Shown here one piece after another: positions 19,949-24,111 of a stretch of DNA of 64,000 nucleotides (its first letter is position 1; every line of letters starts with the position of its first letter). The stretch spans positions 800,001 through 864,000 of the forward strand of contig OY970393.1 of assembly GCA_963720465.1 (NCBI GenBank). Reading direction: 5' to 3'. Source of the stretch: Methanobacteriota archaeon. GTDB taxonomy: Archaea; Halobacteriota; Bog-38; Methanoflorentales; Methanoflorentaceae. A model generated the notes under the pieces. That model saw only the letters and a list, made by a program, of their open reading frames with translations, searched no databases and was not told the DNA's origin. A program made the position numbers and the translations under genes.

Positions 19949-20493
19949 GTATCTCTTCAGGAGAAGCAACACGACAAGGGTGATTACGCTAGAGGAGTAT
20001 TTTCAGGAAGGGTTGCTGAGCAACATCCACTAAAACAACGATTGAAACTTGAGGGAGACAAGGCGCACATTCTACGATTAGTAAAAGACTCTGGAATGTG
20101 GGCTCTTGAACTTGTGAGACAGGAGATACTTATATTTCGTCAACGAAGGATTAAATGCCGACGATCAATACAAAAAGTTGTGGGCAATGAGCCCTGGTTT
20201 AAAAAAGGCAACGCAATAAGACCTTGACAAATCGAAGAAGTAATAGCTGACTGTTACAAGCACTGCTGATTATGAAAGGTGAATAAATGAAAGAGAGGTT
20301 ATTAGAGGTTCTTGAATTGCTCGACCATGAGAAGGAAGACCTAGACCAACTTTGTACAGACGTTTCGTTCCCTGAAACGACGCTGGCACGTTCTGCTGCG
20401 ATGACCAATAGACGGGTGCGAGAGATCGTAGAAGAAGTTCTTGAAGGTATTGAGAATGAGTGAATAAATGTAGCGATGCTGCAAAGCAATATC
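19949..20493 (+). CRISPR. Orphan CRISPR locus A: leader, 37-bp repeat (20012-20048), 429-bp insert, degenerate 5' repeat fragment (20478-20493)
   Basis: GTTGCTGAGCAACATCCACTAAAACAACGATTGAAAC, 33/37 identical to the repeat at 23620; downstream GCTGCAAAGCAATATC; leader homologous to 23556-23619. Confidence 0.7.
20287..20463 (+). CDS. Small acidic helical protein (58 aa) inside the CRISPR insert
   Basis: AAAGGTGA RBS; MKERLLEVLELLDHEKEDLDQLCTDVSFPETTLARSAAMTNRRVREIVEEVLEGIENE; too short for the supplied ORF track. Confidence 0.65.
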   Translation: MKERLLEVLELLDHEKEDLDQLCTDVSFPETTLARSAAMTNRRVREIVEEVLEGIENE

Positions 20494-20513
20494 GTGGTTG
20501 TTTACGAGAAAAC

Positions 20514-20531
20514 GAGCAGTTGCGCTTATTT
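20514..20531 (-). repeat. Dispersed 18-bp core, copy 1 (inverted orientation)
   Basis: GAGCAGTTGCGCTTATTT = reverse complement of AAATAAGCGCAACTGCTC at 29348 and 30087. Confidence 0.8.
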
Positions 20532-20917
20532 TAGTCAGCACACCTTCACCATTCACCGCCCGGCTAATAACGCTTAGACACGGCAGGCAACGCACAACCG
20601 TCAATCTGCCGCGCGGCGCGGACGGCGATAATACTCGCAGCGCGGGATGCGCTCATCATCGCCACGAAGCTTATGCCGACGAATTTGACGCACCTACGAC
20701 AGTCAATCATTGACGGCTAGTTTGATTCGCCCGTTGCATTCGTTACTATGTCCAGAGAAACTAATGATAGCTACGACTGCTTATACCGAGATTATGCCAA
20801 AAAACCACAGGCGTAGGTGCGGCTCCATTTCAGTGAGCGAATAGCAGCCGGAGGCGTTGATCTTTGCGGTCGCCTCATGCTATGTGCACAAACAACGCCC
20901 TCGCTCGCGTTTCTGGG

Positions 20918-22163
20918 CTAATTAACGGTGATCGTCAGGGCTGCGCTCGTCGATGCCTTGTACCACGTGTCACCGGTGAAGGTGGCGTAGTATAGACGTT
21001 TGCCGGGTGATGTCCACTTCTGTGTGAACGTGACCTTGCCGCTCGCGTTCGTCGTTTTCGTCACAACGTTGTAGCGGACGCCGTTAAGGTAGTGGTAGAT
21101 AGTGACTGACTCCGACGATAAGGGCGTCGTGCTCCCCCTGAGGCTGGCGGTGAAGGTGACCCGCTGATTGACAGTGGCGGTGGTGGTGGATGGGGTGAGG
21201 GTCAGCGCGGTGGGAAGTCTGGATGACGTTTGCGCTAGGGATGACGTTTGTGCTGAACTAGTTGGTGGATACTCAACCTGTAGATTTGCGACTATCTGTG
21301 GGAATCCTAGGTGCTCATAGTCGCTGAGCACGTGGGAATCCTGGCTACACCACACGCAAAACTGCGTGAAGCCGACCCCATTTGCGTAGGACCAGTCGAG
21401 CATTGACTTATAACTGGGCGAGCCGCCGCTTAGGGAGTTTGCGAGAACCGGGTTGTCGCCCCCGCTGTTGGCCCACAGGCCTGCCATGATGCCGTTCTGG
21501 ATGCCACGCGCAGCGGCCTGTGTTACTCCCTGTTGAACAGAGGACCACTCCGGCGTATAGTAGCTCTCCCAGCTGTTGATGACAGTGAATGGGTTCTTGT
21601 ACACGTCGAGCCAAAGGCCGCACTGGTCGCAATTGTAGTTTACGTATCCCTTGAAAAACTGCTTCATGTAACGTAAGATCACCCGGTCTGCCCCCTTCGG
21701 AGGCAACATATTGCCACCCGGCGTTTTTGAGTGATTGAAAGTAGGGACCGAAACTGGTTATGGGGGTGCTCTGAAGTCGTCCTCCGCTCCAAATGACCGC
21801 TTCAACATCAATAACCGGCTGCATGCCAAGCGCTTTGATCGTATTGAGCTCGGTCTGGTATGTTCCGCTATCTGGAGCTATAAGTTCCACGGTGGAGAAC
21901 CCGTGTGCCTTAAAATAGGCAAGTGAGCCAGAGTCTATCATCGATGGCGGACCCGCGATAGCGTACCCTATCGGGTGCGTCGCGGCTCCTACCGCAGGGC
22001 TCACGTTAGTTGCGCTTGACGCTGGACTCGCGGCATTTACCGTCGCTGCCGTGAGAGAGAACAAAACCGTAGCCAGAACTAAAAGAGTCATGAATTTTCC
22101 AGCACGCTGACTCCGACTGTGCGTGCGGATGCCCGTTTTTCTATGTAGGACTAACTTGTTCAT
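20918..22163 (-). CDS. Secreted protein with putative glycoside-hydrolase-like domain and C-terminal Ig-like domain; frameshift near 21670
   Basis: Signal peptide (TLLVLATVLFSLTAATVNA); YVASEGGRPGDL joins YMKQFFKGYVNYNCDQCGLW across one extra base; C-terminal TALTLT...YYATFTGDTWYKASTS. Confidence 0.7.
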
Positions 22164-22778
22164 GGGTATCTCTTGCGAAAGAAGCTGCATCTGCAAATGA
22201 GGCGCTTATAATGGATATGACTAAAGAAAATGGGACGATTTTGTATGCGCGCATAACTTTCTCGCAAGAGCTTAGACACTAGGCACCTAAGAACGTTCAG
22301 AACATAATATAAAGGCTTCGGTTGAAATGTGACCGTAGAAACCGTGCTACGGTGTCCAAATGGCAAAGTTCGAACGATTTGACGTCCGTTAGATCCTTCT
22401 ATTTTCCACTGGCTTTGCTAAAGCCGTTTGACTGGCGTCTCCTCTTTCTTGGCGGGTTCTTCTTCCTTTAGAGTGCTTCGCAGCCAGTCTTTGGAACACT
22501 GCCATCACGAATCATAACGGTTATGCGTGCTCGGCGCATCTTGGCAATCGTCCGTGCTTGCCTTGCGCTCGACCCCCTTCGGGAAGCAAGGGTGAATGTG
22601 TGTGTGACCGGGAGAAAAGACCATGGATGAAACTTTCGGAATGCCGATGCAATCAGCGCTGCTGACAATCGACTACAAACCGTGCGGCGCCGACGTACCG
22701 TCCAACCTGCAAGATGGTGCGCATAGTAGCTTCGTCGATAAAAACCGCTTAAACGAAGAAGATCTGCTCATTGTCGTC

Positions 22779-23357
22779 ATGAGTCTCTTGCGGCCGGTTA
22801 CCTATGCGCGCCAAGAAACCGTGTTTGGAGAGAACAAAGAGAGAAATTGGCGCGCCTGCTTTGCTGTAGATGGGCTAACTCACGGGGGGTTTGTCGAAGG
22901 TTTTCGTGTCCTTCAATTCCTAGGAACGGTTATTAACTACTTCAGCGACGCTACCGTTATGAACTTGACTGGCCCCACGCCCGCAAAAGAACACAGAGTA
23001 AAGGATTGGGCCCTTTTCCTCGGCGACAACAATATACTATTCTCTCCTTTCGGTACTTTTGGGGTTGTTGACCATCGGCCGTATCATGACTCAATTTTTT
23101 GCACAATAGAGTTTTACACCGAACGACGACCAAACGAACTGGCGCGTTTTATCCTCGACTGGTTAAAGCCAGGCGTTGGAGAGGGGTGGGTGGCGTTCGA
23201 TTGCCTGACACCTGACGATGAAGTAAAAGCGCGGGAAAGGGTTGAGCAATTAGATCGACAGCTCGCGAGTTTGGGTTATAAGAGCATGACTTTTGATACG
23301 GAGACGCGCAACTTATGGCTGGAAAGAAAACGAGGCAACAAGCACGGGACGAAATAA
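22779..23357 (+). CDS. Hypothetical protein
   Basis: Long protein-like ORF; start uncertain. Confidence 0.6.
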   Translation: MSLLRPVTYARQETVFGENKERNWRACFAVDGLTHGGFVEGFRVLQFLGTVINYFSDATVMNLTGPTPAKEHRVKDWALFLGDNNILFSPFGTFGVVDHRPYHDSIFCTIEFYTERRPNELARFILDWLKPGVGEGWVAFDCLTPDDEVKARERVEQLDRQLASLGYKSMTFDTETRNLWLERKRGNKHGTK

Positions 23358-23555
23358 GCAGCACGACCCCCAAGCGAACACGCGCCACGACAGCATCCAG
23401 CAGCAGCGACAGTCATTTTGTTGATAGTGACATACGACATCAGCTTTGATGGCGCCGCACCGGGCAGCTCCCATCACCCCGGGACGATTTTTGTATGCGT
23501 GGGAGATTGCCTCAGGCAAGTCCTCAAACGCCGAAGAACGTGTCTTATCAATATG

Positions 23556-24111
23556 GTATCTCTTCTGCAACAGCAACATGACAAGGGTTATGACGCTAAA
23601 GGGGTATTTTGACGGTGGGGTTGCAGAGCAACATCCACAAAAACAAGAATTGAAACCGAGCGAGATAAAAAACATAAGGGTGGTTCGACAGCTGTGACGG
23701 AAGCAATAGATTGGTTTAAGGTTAGGATGTGGGAGCTAAAGAAGCTGCTTCGTGGTTCCGAATACAATACCGTGCACGACGAGTTTGGGGGCGAAGTTAT
23801 CGCTGACCTCACCGAATGGCTTAAGATGAAAGGAGCAGCGAAGTTCCATAATAACCTCAATCCCGTGGTTGCTATCACAAAGAACGACGATGTGATATTC
23901 CTCCAAGACTTCGAAGAAGCTCCTACAGACCGGAGCAAAGCGATTATTCACCTTGACGGGCTCTATGCGTTTATAAAAGAAAAGGCGTCCGAAGATAGCT
24001 AAATCCACAGTTGTGACGTTGCAAAGCAGCATCCACTGAAACTTCTATTGAAACTGCACTTAGATACAATAACGGCTGGAAAAATAAGTTGCACAGCAAT
24101 ATCCACTTTTT
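23556..24111 (+). CRISPR. Orphan CRISPR locus B: leader, repeat (23620-23656), 361-bp insert, repeat (24018-24054), 33-bp spacer, truncated repeat (24088-24107), T-tract
   Basis: GTTGCAGAGCAACATCCACAAAAACAAGAATTGAAAC; GTTGCAAAGCAGCATCCACTGAAACTTCTATTGAAAC; GTTGCACAGCAATATCCACT; 37-bp length and ATTGAAAC end typical of methanogen repeats. Confidence 0.82.
23694..24002 (+). CDS. Hypothetical 102-aa protein lying between two CRISPR repeats
   Basis: GTG start with AGGGTGG upstream; ORF fills most of the insert and stops 15 bp before the next repeat. Confidence 0.7.
   Translation: MTEAIDWFKVRMWELKKLLRGSEYNTVHDEFGGEVIADLTEWLKMKGAAKFHNNLNPVVAITKNDDVIFLQDFEEAPTDRSKAIIHLDGLYAFIKEKASEDS

Follow-up and report, generated by a model that had tools for sequence, protein, structure and literature searches.

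Architecture of the two loci

Two CRISPR-derived loci, A and B, each place a small gene behind a leader and a repeat. They lie on the forward strand of the window, the 64,000-nucleotide stretch analyzed here (contig OY970393.1, positions 800,001 to 864,000, from an uncultured Methanobacteriota archaeon of peat, whose genome we denote G000). In window positions, the features are:

19000–19758, minus strand: TPR-repeat protein gene (Pfam TPR_1, E 3e-48), divergent neighbour upstream of leader A
19940–20011, plus strand: leader A (leader HMM E 6e-15)
20012–20048, plus strand: repeat A-R1, 37 nt (HMM E 6e-14), 3′ end ATTGAAAC
20049–20126, plus strand: 78 nt between A-R1 and the ORF-A element, shared with G009 only
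20127–20286, plus strand: conserved region upstream of ORF A (BLAST boundary at 20127–20132 in 8 loci)
20287–20463, plus strand: ORF A, 58 aa, predicted two-helix hairpin (AF2 pLDDT 88.7)
20478–20493, plus strand: partial repeat of locus A, about 16 nt, 5′ part only, terminal-repeat type
20494–23546, no strand: intervening DNA between the two leader+R1 copies, absent before ORF B in G002 and G011
20918–22196, minus strand: gene of an Ig-like-domain surface protein, divided between two frames
22623–23357, plus strand: 244-aa ORF, no family assigned
23547–23619, plus strand: leader B (leader HMM E 9e-17)
23620–23656, plus strand: repeat B-R1 (repeat HMM, E at most 1e-10)
23657–23693, plus strand: ORF B 5′UTR, 37 nt, a normal spacer length, with a Shine-Dalgarno-like GGGTGGT
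23694–24002, plus strand: ORF B, 102 aa, GTG start here, ATG in relatives
24018–24054, plus strand: repeat B-R2 (HMM E 9e-11; 77% identical over a 39-nt register)
24055–24087, plus strand: spacer S of locus B, 33 nt, normal size, inherited in 4 genomes
24088–24124, plus strand: terminal repeat B-R3 (HMM E 0.0097), first 20 nt repeat-like
24125–24229, plus strand: module D, downstream of B-R3 (positions 687/689 to 771–830 of the locus B query match L018, L019, L020 and L024)

Repeat searches confirmed the original prediction of leader+repeat units derived from CRISPR arrays, whose inserts are of gene size and carry ORFs. Both R1 copies reach the Rfam CRISPR-DR7 gathering score of 37 (A-R1 37.8 bits, B-R1 37.9 bits), and the number of repeat matches expected by chance is 0 (100 shuffles). 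Across 19800–24400 the repeat HMM finds exactly five sites, three of them full repeats at E of at most 1e-10; the locus A fragment scores E 0.38, weak taken alone. Rechecking upheld every coordinate first given for repeats, leaders and inserts. Spacer S and B-R3, whose degenerate 3′ part runs into TTTTT, are further elements of locus B that the prediction had not described.

The two loci share their leader and first repeat and differ in what follows. A-R1 and B-R1 match at 33 of 37 positions and differ at 4, the leaders are 78% identical over 73 nt (19940–20012 against 23547–23619), and leader plus R1 agree at 90 of 110 positions. Leader A carries the 11-mer GGAGTATTTTC 7 nt before the repeat, and the 5′ part of A-R1 folds into a 5-bp stem (−4.9 kcal/mol). 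The inserts, 429 bp at A (20049–20477) and 361 bp at B (23657–24017), hold one same-strand ORF each, from unrelated families (hhalign probability 0.2). A repeat search of 20049–20126 found no degenerate repeat.

Misassembly was rejected: an independent genome, G009, is collinear with the region (89% over 5.9 kb). Contigs from RNA libraries also bridge 19940–20355 or more in 4 runs (4 studies) and 23617–24199 in one; these come from a 90–93% relative, cover both strands and nearly the whole stretch, and possibly include DNA. They revealed no transcript start or end and are uninformative about promoters, 3′ ends and processing.

Two small genes and the array parts around them

Both ORFs are real small protein genes of restricted occurrence, under purifying selection as judged from codon-level variation. 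Variable sites at first, second and third codon positions number 18, 13 and 48 (of 102 each) in ORF B and 12, 9 and 33 in ORF A (12 copies). ORF B has 49 homologues, with 14 cluster representatives among 1.84 billion; it is a predicted alpha/beta protein (AF2 pLDDT 76) of no known family, and comparison of its AF2 model gave no fold match. ORF A has 38 homologues, each at least 78% identical, and occurs in 15 copies across 11 of the 24 genomes of the class (three in G004, two each in G001 and G010), adjoining a TBP gene in G011 and G001.

Comparison among genomes shows that leader, R1, 37-nt UTR, ORF B and a following repeat are inherited as one unit within the genus, with flanks that differ between genomes. 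The unit occupies 10 loci in 9 of the 24 class genomes, all in the genus, and one locus is a pseudogene. R1 lies upstream of ORF B at all 10 loci, and R2 is full-length at four. Among these four full loci, mean pairwise identity is 79% for the leader, 92% for R1, 83% for the UTR, 90% for the ORF, 84% for R2 and 80% for S, against 42–50% for the flanks; sequence further upstream of leader B, at 37–50%, is unalignable. The single-contig genome G011 keeps the whole series from leader through R1, ORF B, R2 and S to R3. Relatives thus show an inherited, recurring arrangement rather than the random interruptions that had been named as grounds for abandoning the original prediction. Because the leader is the sole sequence common to the regions upstream of ORF B across genomes, leader B probably holds the ORF-B promoter.

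ORF A is differently equipped. Its conserved 160-nt upstream region (20127–20286), with a Shine-Dalgarno-like AGGTGA before the ATG, probably holds the gene's own promoter and 5′UTR, and the element needs no leader. This region varies at 59 of 140 alignment columns and has no significant similarity to leader+R1; leader and repeat precede ORF A only in G000 and G009. Repeat sequence lies at the 3′ end of 9 of 13 assessable ORF A copies, and the other 4 lack any repeat. Where present in other genomes, it is either nearly a full repeat or just the first 19 nt of one, and is homologous to 20478–20493.

The array parts vary about as freely as synonymous sites. Leader, R1, UTR, R2, S and R3 are as variable as ORF third positions; R1, for instance, varies at 17 of 37 columns, compared with 48 of 102 third positions in ORF B (Fisher p = 1). 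In its final 12 nt, R1 has 2 of 12 columns variable where synonymous sites reach 47%, which is no more than a trend (p = 0.064). These data therefore do not demonstrate selection on the array parts, which may be passive fossils, the genus being young, with the true promoter just a small part of them.

An old duplication and breaks at repeats

A single duplication underlies the resemblance of the two loci. In G002 and G011 the same TPR gene stands beside a single ORF-B unit, in which one leader-R1 leads straight into ORF B. Against this arrangement, the G000/G009 lineage is shown to carry about 3.5 kb, including ORF A, between two diverged leader+R1 copies. The copies are 82% identical to each other and each 76–81% identical to those of G011 and G002, which marks the duplication as old. 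Finding the same architecture twice had been taken to suggest a process; it reduces to this one event, in which 109 nt of leader+R1 were duplicated around the 3.5 kb.

Synteny breaks and one deletion are likewise shown, by genome comparison, to fall at repeats. R2-S-R3 has collapsed into a single repeat at 4 of 10 ORF-B loci (4 other genomes). Module D follows ORF B in G000 and G009 and ORF A in four other genomes, and thus travels with the terminal repeat. Recombination between repeats explains the synteny breaks.

Relation to the CRISPR-Cas system of the host

The host encodes a complete type I-B cas locus with Cas6b and a 59-repeat array, far from loci A and B. The only matches to Cas1, Cas7 and Cas6b in the genome lie at C1:2.07–2.08 Mb, about 1.25 Mb away, consistent, for these three families, with the earlier statement that the window holds no cas gene. 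Orphan repeats match the main-array repeat at 31 of 37 positions, including the last 8 nt, ATTGAAAC, which PMC3479195 describes as the 5′ tag left by Cas6b in M. maripaludis and C. thermocellum type I-B systems. The main repeat does not have the 5′ hairpin of the orphan repeats, so recognition of the latter by this Cas6b is not assured. The orphan-leader HMM does not detect the main array's leader; the sole link is the 11-mer at the same offset. Searches of the surrounding DNA and of the cas locus gave no seed-matched target for spacer S.

Relatives keep the units where searches found no cas genes. Among the 24 class genomes, Cas1 was found in 2, Cas6b_C in 1 and the G000 Cas7 protein in 1, most relatives being incomplete MAGs (59–91% complete), in which cas loci are frequently missed. 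In G011, G032, G009, G002 and G018, RAMP was found in 0 of 5, Cas2 in 1 and Cas3-HD in 0. Genomes that retain units while lacking detected Cas1, Cas2, Cas3-HD, Cas6, Cas6b, Cas7 and RAMP include the single-contig G011.

Other genes also lie next to repeats in the class. About 80 nt, a repeat, a UTR and a SAM methyltransferase gene form a block found in 3 copies in 2 species, a DUF4352 lipoprotein gene stands behind repeat-spacer-repeat in 2 species, and a PEMT/ICMT-family membrane protein gene directly follows a repeat. In the sister genus, the one insert ORF searched (123 aa) found no homologue except itself, and genes between repeats are unproven there as a general pattern.

Known systems and alternative explanations

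A Cas-coupled cassette is an unlikely general function for the units. In cas-positive cells, Cas6b would cut R1 and R2 and free an ORF-B mRNA bearing an 8-nt crRNA handle and a spacer-length UTR; Cascade subunits would cover the ribosome-binding site, and translation of the small protein would report on or safeguard Cascade status, as in CRISPR-repressed toxin-antitoxin (CreTA) modules but on the mRNA. The complete type I-B locus, the repeat family with its Cas6b tag, a 37-nt UTR inside the 33–39-nt spacer range and the quieter last 12 nt of R1 are consistent with such coupling. They are set against units kept where no cas genes were found, an R1 5′ stem decayed in 4 genomes with intact ORF B, the missing hairpin of the main repeat and a spacer S that matches no nearby promoter. 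PADLOC gave no match, toxicity of either protein is unsupported, and in the sister genus the distance from repeat to start codon spans 7 to 205 nt. Retention without detected cas genes and the synonymous-like variation of repeats and leader thus leave the proposed Cas6-set mRNA or Cas-coupled toxin unsupported as a general role. The loci do resemble CreTA, as far as the available portions of PMC8501985, PMC9458426 and 10.1101/2024.01.05.574328 describe it, in that a small gene adjoins a two-repeat CRISPR-like element of type I-B family and an addiction logic is conceivable; unlike those modules, they lie outside the cas operon, hold the gene between rather than beside the repeats, have a spacer with no partial match to a neighbouring promoter, and persist without detectable cas genes. 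The preprint PMC10120712, in its accessible part, reports standalone repeats and mini-arrays as widespread, associates an excess of ectopic repeats with having an active system, and places mini-arrays inside CRISPR-cas loci with spacer-sized inserts that match cas or cargo promoters. Loci A and B share with orphan arrays and ectopic repeats a leader and repeats distant from cas, a degenerate terminal repeat, and a two-repeat R2-S-R3 with an inherited spacer and the repeat family of the host's type I-B array. They differ from the mini-arrays described there in that a gene of 361 or 429 bp takes the place of the first "spacer", the loci lie 1.25 Mb from cas, no target of S was found, and units persist where no cas was found.

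Two further origins fare worse. Cas1-Cas2, or an enzyme resembling a casposase, could have captured gene-sized prespacers next to the leader, making the array an integron-like cassette platform; this seems improbable to us. Full-length repeats do bound the inserts of locus B and of the sister genus, where one G032 run that includes normal spacers also has full repeats 271 and 424 nt apart, and the main array holds three overlong spacers (124, 83 and 65 nt). Yet 55 of the 58 spacers in that active array measure 33–39 nt, ORF A occurs elsewhere with no upstream repeat, Cas1 is scarce in the class and absent near the loci, and viral, phage and plasmid collections yielded no protospacer source. 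The "insert" also contains a second leader copy, which recombination produces and spacer integration does not. The spacer lengths, the rarity of Cas1 and synteny breaks explained by recombination leave the suggested Cas1-like integrase without support. In integrons, promoterless or short cassettes lie behind one platform promoter, bounded by repeated sites and shuffled between genomes. Our units agree with this in outline; unlike integrons they have no integrase and no attC sites, their movement would be homologous recombination at CRISPR repeats, and just two cassette families are shown here as real genes. Solitary repeats can act as RNA anti-CRISPRs, and viral or plasmid mini-arrays or such repeats could have served as RNA decoys for Cas proteins, with anti-CRISPR-like small proteins beside them, before becoming chromosomal; we regard this origin as very improbable. 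Both proteins are small, narrowly distributed orphans, ORF A is present in multiple copies, and its match to a viral cluster scores 0.86 in ESM-Atlas, under the tool's 0.9 lead threshold. Neither IMG/VR, the phage and plasmid collections nor PHROGs yielded relatives of the units. The genes next to them are chromosomal (TPR, TBP, thioredoxin-like), with neither an integrase nor any other mobile-element gene seen beside the loci, and units also sit in genomes with no detected CRISPR-Cas system to inhibit. Phage mini-arrays adjoining acr genes are on record in the available part of PMC10120712. Virus-borne mini-arrays, as the accessible text of PMC6858448 presents them, are similar in joining a leader and one or two repeats, without cas, to small uncharacterized ORFs; our units differ in being chromosomal and syntenic within the genus, with no viral or plasmid relatives found.

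Fossil array ends as proposed gene signals

We give roughly even weight, for and against, to the reading we prefer: that fossil array ends now provide small genes with a promoter, 5′UTR and 3′ end, and that recombination between repeats has shuffled them. Loci A and B would be vestigial leader-proximal array ends, with repeats of the host's type I-B family, between which small host genes came to lie and of which the array parts became the expression context. ORF B would be transcribed from the leader promoter, with R1 inside its 5′UTR, as the common leader and the divergent orientation of the upstream gene in G002 and G011 suggest. The repeat start, a 5-bp hairpin followed at B-R3 by a T-run, may help form the mRNA 3′ end. 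Cassettes would have moved by homologous recombination between repeat copies, and the duplication would be the expected remnant of a Campbell-type insertion or an unequal crossover at leader+R1.

The two proteins would act independently of Cas. In this strain, which bears Cas6b, transcripts may also be cleaved 8 nt short of where each repeat ends, and coupling to Cas6b or Cascade is possible in this cas-positive strain only. Since relatives keep the units though no CRISPR machinery was found there, the old array parts are now probably only the start and stop signals of the genes they enclose.

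Results

The two orphan leader-repeat-ORF loci of the original prediction are real. They lie near 0.82 Mb on contig C1, the only contig of the window's genome (G000; 2.31 Mb, 51.7% G+C; window C1:800001-864000), and consist of the following parts, in window positions.

Parts of locus A and locus B
19940-20011: leader A
20012-20048: repeat A-R1, 37 nt
20287-20463: ORF A, 58 aa, within the 429-bp interval of locus A
20478-20493: start of a repeat, first 16 nt only, closing locus A
23547-23619: leader B
23620-23656: repeat B-R1
after B-R1: the 361-bp interval of locus B, made up of a 37-nt untranslated region (UTR), ORF B and 15 nt of trailing sequence
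23694-24002: ORF B, 102 aa
24018-24054: repeat B-R2
between B-R2 and the terminal repeat: spacer S, 33 nt
from 24088: terminal repeat of locus B (B-R3), repeat-like over its first ~20 nt and then running into TTTTT

Repeats A-R1 and B-R1 are identical at 33 of 37 positions and the two leaders at 78%. Altogether the loci hold three full 37-nt repeats and two partial ones. Rfam model CRISPR-DR7 scores 37.9 and 37.8 here, barely exceeding its gathering score of 37, and no chance matches are expected for the repeat. Scanning the inserts with a repeat HMM brought up no additional degenerate copies.

Assembly at both loci is sound. An independent genome, G009, is collinear with them over 5.9 kb at 89%, and contigs of a 90–93% relative, from four RNA-library runs in four studies, bridge the junctions. 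Contigs from four metatranscriptome runs cover 28–30 of 30 bins at 88–99% likeness; they carry no start, end or strand information, and gaps in their cover (23636-23787, some runs) are uninformative. Adjoining leader A, four to five tandem 102-bp units at 19045-19551 (minus strand) encode the TPR repeats of a 252-aa protein.

The small ORFs of both inserts are genuine genes under purifying selection. Variable sites at codon positions 1, 2 and 3 number 12, 9 and 33 across 12 aligned copies of ORF A, and 18, 13 and 48, each of 102, across nine copies of ORF B. The two families are unrelated to each other. ORF A has 38 homologues at ≥78% identity, named 'Halobacteriota archaeon' or 'archaeon' by NCBI, and 15 copies across 11 of the 24 class genomes, every one in the window's genus; its AlphaFold model is a two-helix hairpin (pLDDT 88.7) with only generic fold matches. 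ORF B has 49 close homologues, and its profile retrieved just 14 proteins from 1.84 billion cluster representatives. Five of these (P0089, P0090, P0092, P0093 and P0097) are full-length relatives at 30–43% identity, the distant relatives being known from short ENA, JGI or Logan contigs. The ORF B model (pLDDT 76) matched nothing in PDB or BFVD.

Broader searches gave no functional assignment. Pfam, PHROGs and PADLOC had no match for ORF A, ORF B or a 244-aa ORF that lies between the two loci; PDB sequence profiles gave no E below 0.7, and Foldseek against PDB and BFVD no match at E ≤0.001. The ESM Atlas returned nothing for ORF B and, for ORF A, its own cluster plus sub-threshold leads. A toxin-antitoxin partner for ORF A was rejected, as no neighbour recurs across contexts: the sole seven-member neighbour cluster consists of ORF A's own antisense frame, and in G011 and G001 the neighbour is a TBP gene.

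The ORF-B unit recurs throughout the genus. ORF B stands at ten loci in nine genomes, preceded by leader and first repeat (R1) at all ten; one copy, G002:C91, carries four stop codons and is a pseudogene. Its downstream side takes three forms.

Sequence downstream of ORF B
G000, G009, G002, G011: full R2, the same 33-nt spacer, R3
G010, G014, G001, G013: a single repeat of terminal type, after which comes the post-R3 sequence of G002 and G011
G006, G002:C91: repeat not recognisable

The single repeat of the second group is the product of recombination between R2 and R3, which removed the spacer. The block carrying ORF B is 76–92% identical between genomes, while the sequence beyond it is unalignable (37–50%). 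In G002 and G011 the block directly adjoins the divergent TPR gene, the neighbour of leader A in G000. Because the block is conserved, its flanks differ and the TPR gene is divergent, transcription of ORF B probably starts within the block. No candidate promoter other than the leader exists there, and R1 would then fall within the 5′ UTR of ORF B.

A type I-B system resides elsewhere in the same genome. The single Cas1 of G000 belongs to an operon of cas8b, cas7, cas5, cas3, cas6b (C1:2078844-2079500), cas1, cas2 and cas4, adjoined by the active array of 59 repeats (C1:2081484-2085915), in which 55 of 58 spacers measure 33–39 nt. Three overlong spacers, all outside the window, at C1:2081815-2081938 (124 nt), 2082047-2082129 (83 nt) and 2085668-2085732 (65 nt), may be fused spacers left by repeat loss. 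The main repeat matches B-R1 at 31 of 37 positions and has the same last eight nucleotides, ATTGAAAC, an octamer that in M. maripaludis and C. thermocellum is the 5′ tag left by Cas6b on type I-B crRNAs (PMC3479195). An 8-nt tag, AUUGAAAC, stands at the ends of A-R1, B-R1 and B-R2, and the Cas6b of G000 is a candidate cutter of these repeats. The only sequence common to main and orphan leaders is the 11-mer GGAGTATTTTC, placed 7 nt ahead of the repeat in each; the main leader goes undetected by an HMM built on the orphan leaders, and the orphan repeats begin with a 5-bp hairpin that the main repeat lacks. Self-targeting by the active array was rejected: none of its 58 spacers matches the orphan loci, and matches elsewhere are chance ones of 13–18 nt. 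Upstream of the cas operon (L006:1-6800, equal to G000:C1:2066000-2072800) the DNA consists of multi-copy pieces scattered without synteny in five relatives, so the cas locus lies in a variable, repeat-rich region.

The orphan loci share parts with canonical CRISPR arrays and depart from them in layout. We took a canonical array to have direct repeats of 23–50 nt from a known family, uniform spacers of about 30–45 nt, a leader and adjacent cas genes. The orphan repeats, 37 nt long, belong to a known family by both their Rfam match and their likeness to the host I-B repeat, and a conserved leader block of ~73 nt precedes R1 at both loci and at nine loci of relatives. In contrast, the first intervals measure 429 and 361 bp, spacer size (33 nt) occurs only within R2-S-R3, and no cas gene is adjacent. 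The cas1 and cas6 genes that the original prediction said to look for do exist together in the I-B locus of G000, but none is near the orphan loci; the sole Cas1, Cas6b and Cas7 matches fall at C1:2.07-2.08 Mb.

Spacer S does not behave like the guide of a CreTA module or regulatory mini-array. Such a guide would have a seed match in neighbouring or cas promoters. The first 12 nt of S match at best 9 of 12 positions within 19000-25300, with no seed match there, and no match was found in the cas locus, so CreA-like targeting was rejected. The orphan loci also lie 1.25 Mb from cas, and such units exist in genomes without a Cas match. Genome-wide, S is matched best at 25 of 33 positions (C1:302279-302311, outside the window), the runner-up reaching 22 of 33; this best site falls in a stretch that looks coding, next to a fragment of a methyltransferase-like gene.

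ORF A forms an element of its own, whose 5′ limit, ~20127, is 160 nt ahead of the ATG and whose 3′ limit is the start of the repeat. Among 13 copies with an assessable 3′ flank, nine carry repeat sequence 14 nt past the stop codon and four carry none. The repeat is mostly reduced to its first 14–19 nt and is nearly full in one copy (G001:C7). In four genomes it is followed by module D, the ~140 nt that in G000 follow the terminal repeat of ORF B (24088-24229). Leader and repeat stand upstream of ORF A only in G000 and G009. The idea that the element opens with a decayed leader or repeat (a TATA-like stretch plus CAACGAAGGATTAAATGC) was dropped: 753 and 581 of 1000 shuffles reached the observed local alignment score in G000, and 18–28 of 300 in loci L017–L020, and the repeat HMM found nothing there.

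The original prediction took the occurrence of the same architecture twice as the mark of a process; comparison of genomes instead shows a single rearrangement rather than two separate captures. Relative to G002 and G011, the G000/G009 lineage carries an extra 3,498 bp (20049-23546) and a second leader+R1 of 109–110 nt, the extra DNA sitting between the TPR-side leader-R1 and the ORF-B UTR. It contains the ORF-A element, a gene for an Ig-like surface protein, broken across two frames, and the 244-aa ORF. Direct leader+R1 repeats around inserted DNA are probably the trace of Campbell-type integration or unequal crossover. The two copies match each other at 82% and those of G011 and G002 at 76–81%; the event is therefore old, unless the incoming copy was divergent from the outset.

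The surface-protein gene (20918-22196, minus strand; C-terminal Ig-like domain, Big_3_5; two overlapping frames) has many paralogues in G000 and relatives. In all four runs, contigs of a close relative are one base shorter at 21672, so the frameshift is either real in the strain or a homopolymer assembly error. The 244-aa ORF (22623-23357, plus strand) lies directly upstream of leader B, between the two copies of the duplicated leader+R1.

Genes directly behind CRISPR repeats are a recurring trait of the lineage, with candidate ORFs among the small inserts. Sister-genus genomes without cas matches contain scattered repeats of the same family. In genome G032, seven repeats of three sequence variants form a run, and inserts of 271 nt (a 77-aa CxxC ORF) and 424 nt (a 123-aa ORF whose homologue search returned only itself) sit exactly between full repeats; G031 has small membrane ORFs between repeats. 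Solitary or paired repeats also occur 24–65 nt upstream of ordinary genes. One such gene, for a 267-aa SAM methyltransferase, has a solitary repeat 56 nt upstream in L057 (G032:C1:1571300-1573900), L052 and L062 (G018). These three copies, from two species, share a block of ~80 nt, repeat, UTR and gene, with unrelated sequence further upstream; third codon positions agree at 90%, and the block looks recently copied. Genes for a DUF4352 lipoprotein (two species) and a PEMT/ICMT-family membrane protein likewise lie behind a repeat.

Across 24 genomes of the class (one family, two genera), cas genes are nearly absent, yet one repeat family is scattered in 16 of the 24.

Matches to Cas proteins in the class
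Cas1: 2 of 24 genomes (G000, G018)
Cas7 protein of G000: 1 of 24
Cas6b_C: 1 of 24
Cas6 model PF01881: 0 of 24; insensitive here, since it also misses the Cas6b of G000
RAMP: 0 of 5 (G011, G032, G009, G002, G018)
Cas2: 1 of the same 5 (G018)
Cas3-HD: 0 of the same 5

G011 and G032 each consist of one contig, and their completeness scores (90 and 91) resemble that of G000 (91); most others are MAGs, 59–91% complete. G011, with no cas match, retains the whole arrangement leader-R1-ORF B-R2-S-R3.

Clear constraint was seen in the ORFs only. Over nine loci, variable columns number 48 of 73 in the leader, 17 of 37 in R1, 19 of 37 in the UTR and 48 of 102 at third positions of ORF B; the last 12 nt of R1 have 2 of 12 (p = 0.064). 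In the four full loci, variation in R2, S and R3 does not differ from that at third positions. This variable-column comparison does not show selection on leader, repeats or UTR. The genus is young (third-position divergence ~16–18%), so unselected repeats could still survive.

Discussion

The finding is real and unusual, and the more exciting mechanisms proposed for it are unsupported. The reading we favour, which we rate about as probable as everything else together, is that the loci are fossil leader-proximal array ends framing small host genes, with cassettes recombined at the repeats and a function independent of Cas. Leader and first repeat would most likely serve as promoter and 5′ UTR, and the terminal repeat as the 3′ end of small genes; cassettes would have been moved and trimmed through recombination between repeats, and the products of ORF A and ORF B would work without Cas.

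Three rival explanations give the type I-B machinery or foreign DNA a larger part. The cas-positive strain G000 could couple these genes to Cas6b and Cascade, given that the 8-nt tag is common to orphan and main repeats and that the UTR has spacer length (37 nt); we regard this as unlikely, as the ORF-B unit is kept in genomes without a Cas match. We hold capture of the inserts as oversized spacers to be very unlikely: the active array takes up spacers of 33–39 nt in 55 of 58 cases, and Cas1 was found in few genomes of the class. The Cas1-like integrase of the original prediction fares no better: unlike a casposon or other Cas1-mediated cassette, the element has no Cas1 in or beside it, and the only Cas1 of G000 sits in the I-B locus. 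An origin in a mobile element, such as a mini-array carrying anti-CRISPR genes, is extremely improbable. We found no carriage by virus, plasmid or provirus, and the neighbours are chromosomal genes; the search of viral and plasmid databases suggested in the original prediction ended without a source, with no relatives of ORF A or ORF B in IMG/VR or PHROGs, and no match in phage and plasmid collections for the DNA of both loci or the ORF B protein. The remaining probability belongs to readings beyond those formulated here.

A broader proposal joins the fossil-array reading to Cas6b and Cascade, and we think it quite unlikely as a whole. In this archaeal class, leader plus repeat would be a portable promoter/5′ UTR unit, and decayed arrays an integron-like platform on which small-gene cassettes are swapped by repeat recombination. 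In type I-B strains Cas6b would trim the mRNAs to a crRNA-like 5′ end, and Cascade subunits would load on the 8-nt handle and 37-nt UTR, mask the ribosome-binding site and couple translation to the state of the effector. If true, this would be a new, post-transcriptional type of Cas-controlled gene.

Such loci are easily overlooked. Orphan arrays and ectopic repeats are commonly dismissed as debris or taken for sources of regulatory RNA, and CRISPR finders would miss loci of this kind. Because gene callers overextend ORF B upstream into the repeat, many of its database models reach 131 aa, and one (P0004) starts with translated repeat. A limited literature search found no description of conserved protein genes at the CRISPR spacer position, though the supplementary tables of PMC10120712 may list such loci.

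Here protein genes under purifying selection hold the spacer position behind a CRISPR leader throughout a genus in which cas genes were found only in G000. If the leader drives the ORFs, array parts have been co-opted as ordinary gene-expression signals, and the repeats would also be sites of recombination at which small genes are reshuffled. If the genes are coupled to Cas in cas-positive strains, they would represent a further route by which CRISPR effectors control host genes.
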